NCBI RefSeq assembly: GCF_003334815.1
Contig: NZ_QOWO01000111.1
Strand: one strand, 5' to 3'
From: Escherichia coli
Lineage (GTDB): Bacteria; Pseudomonadota; Gammaproteobacteria; Enterobacterales; Enterobacteriaceae
DNA length: 974 nucleotides
The notes beneath the pieces were generated by a model. The model was given only the letters and a program-made list of their open reading frames with translations, searched no databases and was not told the DNA's origin. Positions 102 through 974 of this stretch are shown here, in pieces; position 1 is the first letter of the stretch, and every line of letters begins with the position of its first letter. The position numbers were made by a program, and so were the translations under genes.

Positions 102-974
102 ATGCTGAGCAGAGAGGACTTTTACATGATAAAGCAAATGCGCCAGCAGGGCGCGTACATTGTCGATATTGCGACTCAGATTGGTTGCTCTGAACGGACG
201 GTCAGACGCTACCTCAAATACCCTGAACCGCCAGCCAGAAAGACCCGCCACAAAATGGTTAAGCTGAAACCGTTTATGGATTACATCGACATGCGCCTGG
301 CAGAGAATGTCTGGAATAGTGAGGTTATCTTCGCGGAGATTAAGGCAATGGGTTATACGGGCGGACGTTCCATGCTGCGTTACTACATCCAGCCCAAACG
401 TAAAATGCGTCCGTCAAAAAGAACAGTTCGCTTCGAAACTCAGCCTGGATACCAGCTCCAGCACGACTGGGGCGAAGTTGAGGTGGAGGTTGTCGGGCAA
501 CGGTGCAAAGTTAACTTTGCGGTTAATTCGCTGGGGTTCTCCCGCCGCTTCCATGTCTTCGCCGCACCAAAACAGGATGCTGAGCATACCTACGAATCAC
601 TGGTTCGCGCCTTCCGCTACTTCGGTGGTTGTGTGAAAACGGTGCTGGTTGATAACCAGAAGGCTGCGGTGCTGAAGAATAACAACGGGAAAGTCGTGTT
701 CAACTCCGGATTCCTGTTGCTGGCCGACCACTATAACTTCCTGCCACGGGCATGCCGTCCACGCAGGGCCAGAACAAAAGGTAAGGTTGAGCGAATGGTG
801 AAATACCTCAAGGAGAACTTCTTCGTCCGGTACCGCAGGTTCGACAGCTTCACTCATGTTAATCAACAACTGGAGCAATGGATAGCCGATGTGGCTGACA
901 AACGGGAACTTCGCCAGTTCAAAGAAACGCCGGAACAGCGCTTCGCGCTGGAGCAGGAACATCTGCAGCCGTTA
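102..974 (+). CDS. istA: IS21-family transposase IstA, 3'-partial (291 codons, continues beyond the window)
   Basis: ATG at 102 preceded by an RBS; open frame 3 with no stop through 974. Hand translation: MLSREDFYMIKQMRQQGAYIVDIATQIGCSERTVRRYLKYPEPPARK...QLQHDWGEVEVEVVGQRCKVNF...VLVDNQKAAV...TKGKVERMVKYLKEN...EQEHLQPL. It has an N-terminal HTH and an integrase-type DDE core. Not in the ORF track because there is no in-window stop. Confidence 0.92.
   Translation, partial: MLSREDFYMIKQMRQQGAYIVDIATQIGCSERTVRRYLKYPEPPARKTRHKMVKLKPFMDYIDMRLAENVWNSEVIFAEIKAMGYTGGRSMLRYYIQPKRKMRPSKRTVRFETQPGYQLQHDWGEVEVEVVGQRCKVNFAVNSLGFSRRFHVFAAPKQDAEHTYESLVRAFRYFGGCVKTVLVDNQKAAVLKNNNGKVVFNSGFLLLADHYNFLPRACRPRRARTKGKVERMVKYLKENFFVRYRRFDSFTHVNQQLEQWIADVADKRELRQFKETPEQRFALEQEHLQPL
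150..215 (+). other. istA: N-terminal helix-turn-helix DNA-binding region of IstA (about residues 17-38)
   Basis: Segment GAYIVDIATQIGCSERTVRRYL has the typical helix / G-turn / recognition-helix pattern of transposase N-terminal HTH domains. Boundaries are approximate. Confidence 0.6.
465..791 (+). other. istA: DDE catalytic core of IstA: D122 (465-467), D184 (651-653), E230 (789-791)
   Basis: Seen in sequence: HDWGE motif (first D), VLVDNQ (second D) and TKGKVERMVKYLK (E followed by K/R at +1, +4 and +7). Spacing is D-61-D-45-E, typical of rve-type integrase/transposase cores. Confidence 0.75.

Follow-up and report, generated by a model that had tools for sequence, protein, structure and literature searches.

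The window covers the left end of IS21 and an istA reading frame, open through codon 291, that contains a DDE triad

We analyzed a 974-base stretch of Escherichia coli DNA (RefSeq assembly GCF_003334815.1, contig NZ_QOWO01000111.1), hereafter referred to as the window. The window is the leftmost part of the insertion sequence IS21; it starts at element base 1, without any flanking DNA, and comprises approximately the first 46% of the element. The left end is followed by the transposase gene istA, whose first 291 codons occupy the rest of the window (Table 1). Absent from the window are istA codons 292–390 (99 residues that make up the beta-barrel and the tail), the second gene istB, and the right end.

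Table 1. Positions of the features described in the text, numbered from the first base of the window.
Feature	Position	Strand	Remarks
Left end of IS21	1–60	+	Terminal inverted repeat TGTCAGCGCCA at 1–11
Candidate -10 hexamer, TATAAG	16–21	+	Inside the left end; read from the sequence
Ribosome-binding site, AGGA	91–94	+	7 nt 5' of the start codon; kept in 4 of 5 aligned relatives
istA codons 1–291 of 390	102–974	+	Open to the last base, no stop or frameshift
Second in-frame ATG, codon 9	126–128	+	Translation MLSREDFYM...; invariant in four relatives
HTH-1 (residues 12–39)	135–218	+	Pfam HTH_23 at 12–39, E = 4e-4; HTH_7 at 3–38
HTH-2 (approximately residues 53–102)	258–407	+	Gap-poor alignment to IS5376 residues 55–104
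DDE / RNase H-like domain (approximately residues 118–283)	453–950	+	Equivalent to IS5376 residues 120–285
D122 (GAC), first catalytic aspartate	465–467	+	Aligns with IS5376 D124; D in 74/74 relatives
Codon 131, GTC (Val)	492–494	+	GCC (Ala) in the closest copies; T493 gives A131V
D184 (GAT), second catalytic aspartate	651–653	+	VLVDNQK motif; aligns with IS5376 D187; D in 72/74 relatives
E230 (GAG), catalytic glutamate	789–791	+	TKGKVER motif; aligns with IS5376 E233; E in 72/74 relatives

IS21, also called IS8, is a 2131-bp element of the IncP-alpha plasmid R68/R68.45, and is widespread on enterobacterial plasmids and E. coli chromosomes. A BLAST search with the whole window returned copies from both plasmids and chromosomes of E. 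coli at 99.8% DNA identity (two differences in 974 bases), and the RefSeq/PGAP label of these copies is 'IS21-like element IS21 family transposase'. At the protein level, 290 of 291 residues were identical to those of the RefSeq-annotated IS21 copies. Among plasmids, the best match was NZ_LT985242.1 (locus L001), which carries a 2131-bp element (L001 positions 3001–5131) with an istA of 390 aa and an istB of 265 aa. In this locus, as in loci L003, L004, and L005, istB directly follows istA with overlapping stop and start codons. The best match to the window in a phage collection had 98.9% identity (BLAST). Judged by its sequence, the element is IS21 itself (an isoform) and more than a mere member of the family, where the name IS21 is that of the RefSeq annotation and not that of an ISfinder reference entry. 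A first idea, that the element was IS100 of Yersinia, was dropped because the closest full copies are 2131 bp long, encode a 390-aa IstA and a 265-aa IstB, and are labeled IS21. Overall, the best explanation, to which we give a probability of roughly 95%, is that the window represents the first 974 bases of IS21, that is, its left end and istA codons 1–291, with the catalytic triad D122/D184/E230 present. Both the element and its catalytic residues are already known, and the identification meets no contradicting evidence.

The left end has the multiple-repeat arrangement of IS21-family ends: the terminal motif at positions 1–12 recurs inside the end as a direct copy, TGTCCGCTCCAC, at positions 43–54, with 9 of 12 bases identical. 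Elements of this family have terminal inverted repeats that start with TGT and finish with ACA. The right end of the L001 copy, when read inward, is TGTCAACGCCA, which is identical to window positions 1–11 at 10 of 11 bases. Repeats of this kind are bound by an IstA tetramer (PMC10122671). A promoter scan found no complete sigma-70-like promoter in the 974-base window, in agreement with the published split promoter of IS21, whose -10 box lies in the left terminal inverted repeat (TIR) and whose -35 box lies in the right TIR, and which is weak in a single copy of the element and strong in a tandem (PMC10122671). The right end of the L001 copy terminates in ...CGTTGACA (the reverse complement of TGTCAACG), with a -35 hexamer, TTGACA, at its tip. 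The hexamer TATAAG in the left end, whose exact placement at 16–21 we infer, is a candidate half-promoter that would be completed by the right-end TTGACA in a tandem of two IS21 copies.

Translation of istA might start at either of two in-frame ATG codons. A 'cointegrase' isoform of IS21 IstA that is without the first eight residues is mentioned in PMC10122671, which refers to Schmid et al., 1998, for it. By its position at codon 9, the ATG at 126–128 matches this published cointegrase start.

Folding of the leader RNA (window positions 40–125, plus strand) predicted a hairpin of -26.6 kcal/mol (z = -3.8), and none of 200 shuffled sequences folded as well. In the prediction, positions 44–65 pair with positions 98–119, so the structure takes in the conserved second terminal repeat, covers the ribosome-binding site as well as the first ATG, and ends just 5' of the second ATG. 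Both paired segments are without variation in the four relatives compared, so that there was no covariation to score. We consider it unlikely, if conceivable, that such a hairpin, supposing that it is real, sets the ratio of full-length transposase to cointegrase by damping translation of full-length IstA. Were this the case, binding of IstA to the same DNA would couple occupancy of the end to the choice of isoform. The leader hairpin is the only feature of this locus that is not tied to a published description.

The left end together with the first 11 codons (window positions 1–135) had a mean column identity of 96% when aligned with positions 201–335 of the four relatives (loci L004 to L007). 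Columns 42–79 and 101–133 were invariant in these relatives, whose whole elements are 85–91% identical. The high conservation of positions 1–135 fits constraint from IstA binding sites, from the leader structure, or from both.

To our knowledge, the IstA protein of IS5376 is the sole IS21-family transposase with solved structures. The window protein aligned end to end with this transposase (Geobacillus stearothermophilus; PDB 8b4h and 8q4d) at 41.8% identity over 287 aligned residues (E = 6e-70), and the order of domains, namely HTH-1, HTH-2, and DDE, is the same in both proteins. From its start codon at 102–104, the istA frame is collinear, without gaps, with the 390-aa reference. Protein residues 11–291 matched positions 2–292 of the 294-position NCBIfam model NF033546 (transpos_IS21) with a score of 280.4 bits against a cut-off of 160, hence the preliminary description, which had assigned the protein to the IS21-family IstA transposases, was correct on this point. 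It had also described the N-terminal HTH as intact, in line with the Pfam HTH_23 match in this region and with the alignment of HTH-1 to HTH-1 of IS5376 (residues 1–39). HTH-2 had no match of its own in the protein Pfam search and was delimited by alignment to IS5376, whose domain limits are taken from PMC10122671. Further downstream, Pfam rve matched residues 113–222 (E = 3.9e-13) and rve_3 matched residues 218–263. The longest alternative ORF in the window is a 121-aa antisense frame on the minus strand (597–962) inside istA, which is most likely a by-product of coding-strand composition.

We then considered the catalytic triad. The preliminary description had named D122, D184, and E230 as the DDE residues and had called their spacing canonical. 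In the alignment with the characterized IstA protein, the three residues fell on D124, D187, and E233 of IS5376, with no substituted positions, and their codons (GAC, GAT, and GAG) spanned exactly the interval 465–791 that had been given for them. For a wider comparison, 74 relatives of at least 330 aa, 32–55% identical to the query (median 35%), were drawn from 1.84 billion representative proteins. The triad columns were among just 13 columns that were conserved at 97% or more in these relatives. Close to E230, G227 was kept in 73 of the 74 proteins and K226 in 71. The spacing, 61 residues between the two aspartates and 45 between D184 and E230, agreed with the family modes of 61–62 and 45–47. 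The description had furthermore pointed to characteristic basic residues after the glutamate, and this was borne out in part: R occupies E+1 in 52/74 relatives and K or R occupies E+7 in 51/74, but E+4 (K234 in the window protein) varies, and in IS5376 Q stands at E+4 and M at E+7.

In IS5376 IstA, D124/D187/E233 constitute the DDE motif and have been tested by mutation (PMC10122671; PMC11208146). Alanine substitutions of the catalytic residues almost abolish integration (PMC10122671), and D124 and E233 coordinate Mg2+ beside the 3' CA end (PMC10122671; PMC11208146). The observation of the triad is confirmed, far beyond chance, and the catalytic center encoded in the window looks functional as far as its sequence can tell. 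Collectively, the window was shown to encode an undamaged DNA-binding and catalytic part of IS21 IstA that adjoins an intact left end.

Upon comparison with the L001 copy, the window differed at two bases: C563, which is synonymous, and T493, which changes codon 131 from alanine to valine. C563 is a common variant, with an exact match in 473 plasmid records. For T493, we used a 51-mer centered on this base and designed such that megablast could not seed unless the T was present; this probe matched nothing among 72,556 plasmids and 5,426 E. coli genomes, whereas the control 51-mer with C493 had an exact match in 515 plasmid records. An exact 30-mer with T493 likewise did not occur in contigs of the viral, genome, and metagenome collections, and BLAST against the phage set returned no copy with T493. 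T493 is either a substitution unique to the present copy or a sequencing error.

The A131V substitution is located in the first beta-hairpin of the catalytic domain, nine residues past D122, and might in principle impair the enzyme despite the intact triad. The absence of T493 from every other copy in the collections searched, the abundance of the alanine version, and the absence of valine from column 131 among the 74 relatives would be in keeping with such a defect. However, column 131 is among the most variable columns of the catalytic domain (it holds D, G, A, E, N, T, K, L, Y, F, W, and others, with E in IS5376), the exchange of alanine for valine is conservative, and the single base difference may be a sequencing error. 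We therefore regard impairment by A131V as very improbable; the substitution is probably neutral.

Next, we examined the distribution of IS21 among other replicons. Of 5426 complete E. coli genomes, 2504 had matches, with as many as 15 places in a single genome, and matches were also present in 3392 plasmid records. In L001, the element lies on an IncN plasmid between ccgAII and stbC and is flanked by a 4-bp target duplication, TCTT. In L003, a 99.8%-identical copy lies on the chromosome between alr and tyrB, with CTTA as its 4-bp target duplication. Direct target duplications flanking IS21-family elements are short, 4–5 bp and sometimes 8 bp. This comparison of copy number and location, which the preliminary description had put forward as a way to look for recent transposition, revealed near-identical full copies at unrelated sites with different target duplications, which is evidence that the lineage moves.

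Truncated and internally deleted copies of IS21 are also common on plasmids. At least 80% of the window was present in 840 plasmid records, and just 645 records held at least 80% of the element. One derivative of 590 bp, in which element bases 1–425 are joined to bases 1965–2131, was found on the E. coli plasmid pETN48 (NC_014615.1; L002 positions 2501–3090), and recurs at 99.3% identity, unannotated, in many IncF plasmid records. It keeps both ends and is without the DDE domain and istB, and could be a non-autonomous element that is mobilizable in trans. No obvious target duplication was seen in the 10-bp flanks of the pETN48 copy.

Among protein cluster representatives (P0001 to P0010 and others), we also noted sequences that are 89–99% identical to the window IstA, many of them just 100–330 aa long. 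Cut or truncated istA genes of IS21, as partial copies or contig-end fragments, are therefore numerous in public assemblies.

The preliminary description had predicted that the transposase is competent since its triad is intact, with the proviso that istB and the right end are intact as well; this proviso is the decisive point. The observations behind this conclusion, namely the triad, the HTH, and the family assignment, all stand, but competence itself is not supported by a window that ends at codon 291 of 390. It is not inferable from the window because the last 99 codons of istA, istB, and the right end all lie outside it. The claim goes further than the window allows, and is unproven rather than wrong. 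The IstA protein of IS5376 cannot carry out strand transfer alone, and IstB is essential (PMC10122671). The beta-barrel (residues 300–355) of the catalytic IS5376 subunits docks into IstB, and the truncated IS5376 protein IstA(1–287) has a substantially reduced ability to stimulate the ATPase of IstB and to be activated for integration, similar to beta-barrel point mutants (PMC11208146). A glutamine in the C-terminal part, Q369, also contributes to integration (PMC10122671). By alignment, the predicted product of the window corresponds almost exactly to IstA(1–287) of IS5376. The weak expression of a single IS21 copy (PMC10122671) was also counted against calling the copy competent.

The mobility of the present copy depends on sequence beyond the window. 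We think it probable, though far from assured, that the window is simply a cut through a complete, transposition-competent copy of 2131 bp that has a full istA, istB, and the right end. Approximately 77% of the plasmid records with at least 80% of the window also have at least 80% of the element (645 versus 840), the frame is clean over 291 codons, and its product differs by one amino acid from those of copies with target duplications. The occurrence of near-identical copies at as many as 15 places in one E. coli genome further indicates an active lineage. On the other hand, the window begins at element base 1 and ends at an odd length inside istA, as would a collapsed or interrupted assembly repeat, and none of the collections searched contains the exact variant.

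A second possibility, one that we hold to be plausible but short of probable, is that the copy is a remnant that is truncated or interrupted at or after position 974, or that has no istB or no right end. In this case the triad, though intact, would be an inconsequential relic unless another IS21 mobilized the fragment in trans. Approximately 23% of the plasmid records with the segment do not have a near-complete element, truncated forms comprising element bases 1–1483, 1–1671, 107–1797, and 156–1158 were seen, and the 590-bp deleted form in many IncF plasmids and the many short IstA fragments among the protein cluster representatives are further instances of incomplete copies. Against a remnant, none of 60 rows sampled across 3777 plasmid records showed a truncation class that ends at position 974, and the 974 bases show no decay, with just two differences from the closest copy, one of them non-synonymous and the other synonymous.

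By homology with IS5376, an IstA tetramer would occupy the repeats of the two ends and bring these ends together. Two of its subunits would cut and join in trans at the 3' CA ends through their DDE sites, with Mg2+. Transfer of the strands into a target would take place only once IstB, an AAA+ helper, engages the C-terminal beta-barrel of IstA; in this scheme, decamers of IstB on bent target DNA would activate strand transfer. The triad is insufficient for mobility because IS21 also needs the IstA beta-barrel, the IstB ATPase, and both ends. An intact triad in a partial transposase gene is therefore the mark of an undecayed catalytic center and not proof of mobility. A complete copy would give an enterobacterial replicon a further active IS21, with cointegrates and rearrangements of plasmids and the chromosome as possible outcomes. 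The importance of the finding beyond annotation is small, given that IS21 has long been studied and that the catalytic residues of the family have been defined by structure and mutagenesis.

Lastly, we compared the window with known systems. It agrees with IS21 proper in its left end, in both the start codon and the second ATG at codon 9, and in its protein except for A131V, and differs from it in T493, which was seen in no other copy. Of the residues with which IS5376 IstA contacts target DNA, N188 and K190 are conserved as N185 and K187 in the window protein, whereas K126 and Y224 are replaced by G124 and R221. The window protein has one residue fewer between the two aspartates, and carries basic residues at E+4 and E+7 where IS5376 does not. 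The two elements also differ in their target duplications, which are 5 bp for IS5376 (PMC10122671) and 4 bp for the IS21 copies examined.

ISEc62 and other IS21-like elements of Enterobacterales (85–91% DNA identity) have the same gene order and gene lengths, including an istA of 390 aa. Their left ends are near-identical to that of the window, with the 96% mean column identity over the first 135 bases noted above, but they diverge by 9–15% over the whole element and are hence distinct elements and not isoforms of IS21. One of these relatives, a 90.8%-identical IS21-like copy on the Yersinia pestis plasmid pCD1 (L006; NC_004839.1, 58748–60418), matches just element bases 1–1671. The annotation of the stretch shown includes a 390-aa istA but not an istB; this copy apparently combines an intact transposase gene with the lack of a complete helper gene.

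At a greater distance, MuA and TnsB gave no significant sequence match to the window protein, and their resemblance to it is taken from the literature. According to these accounts, the MuA/MuB and TnsB/TnsC systems share the domain logic of IstA and IstB, that is, a transposase with tandem HTH domains, a DDE domain, a beta-barrel, and a C-terminal extension, and its activation by an ATPase helper (PMC10122671; PMC11208146).
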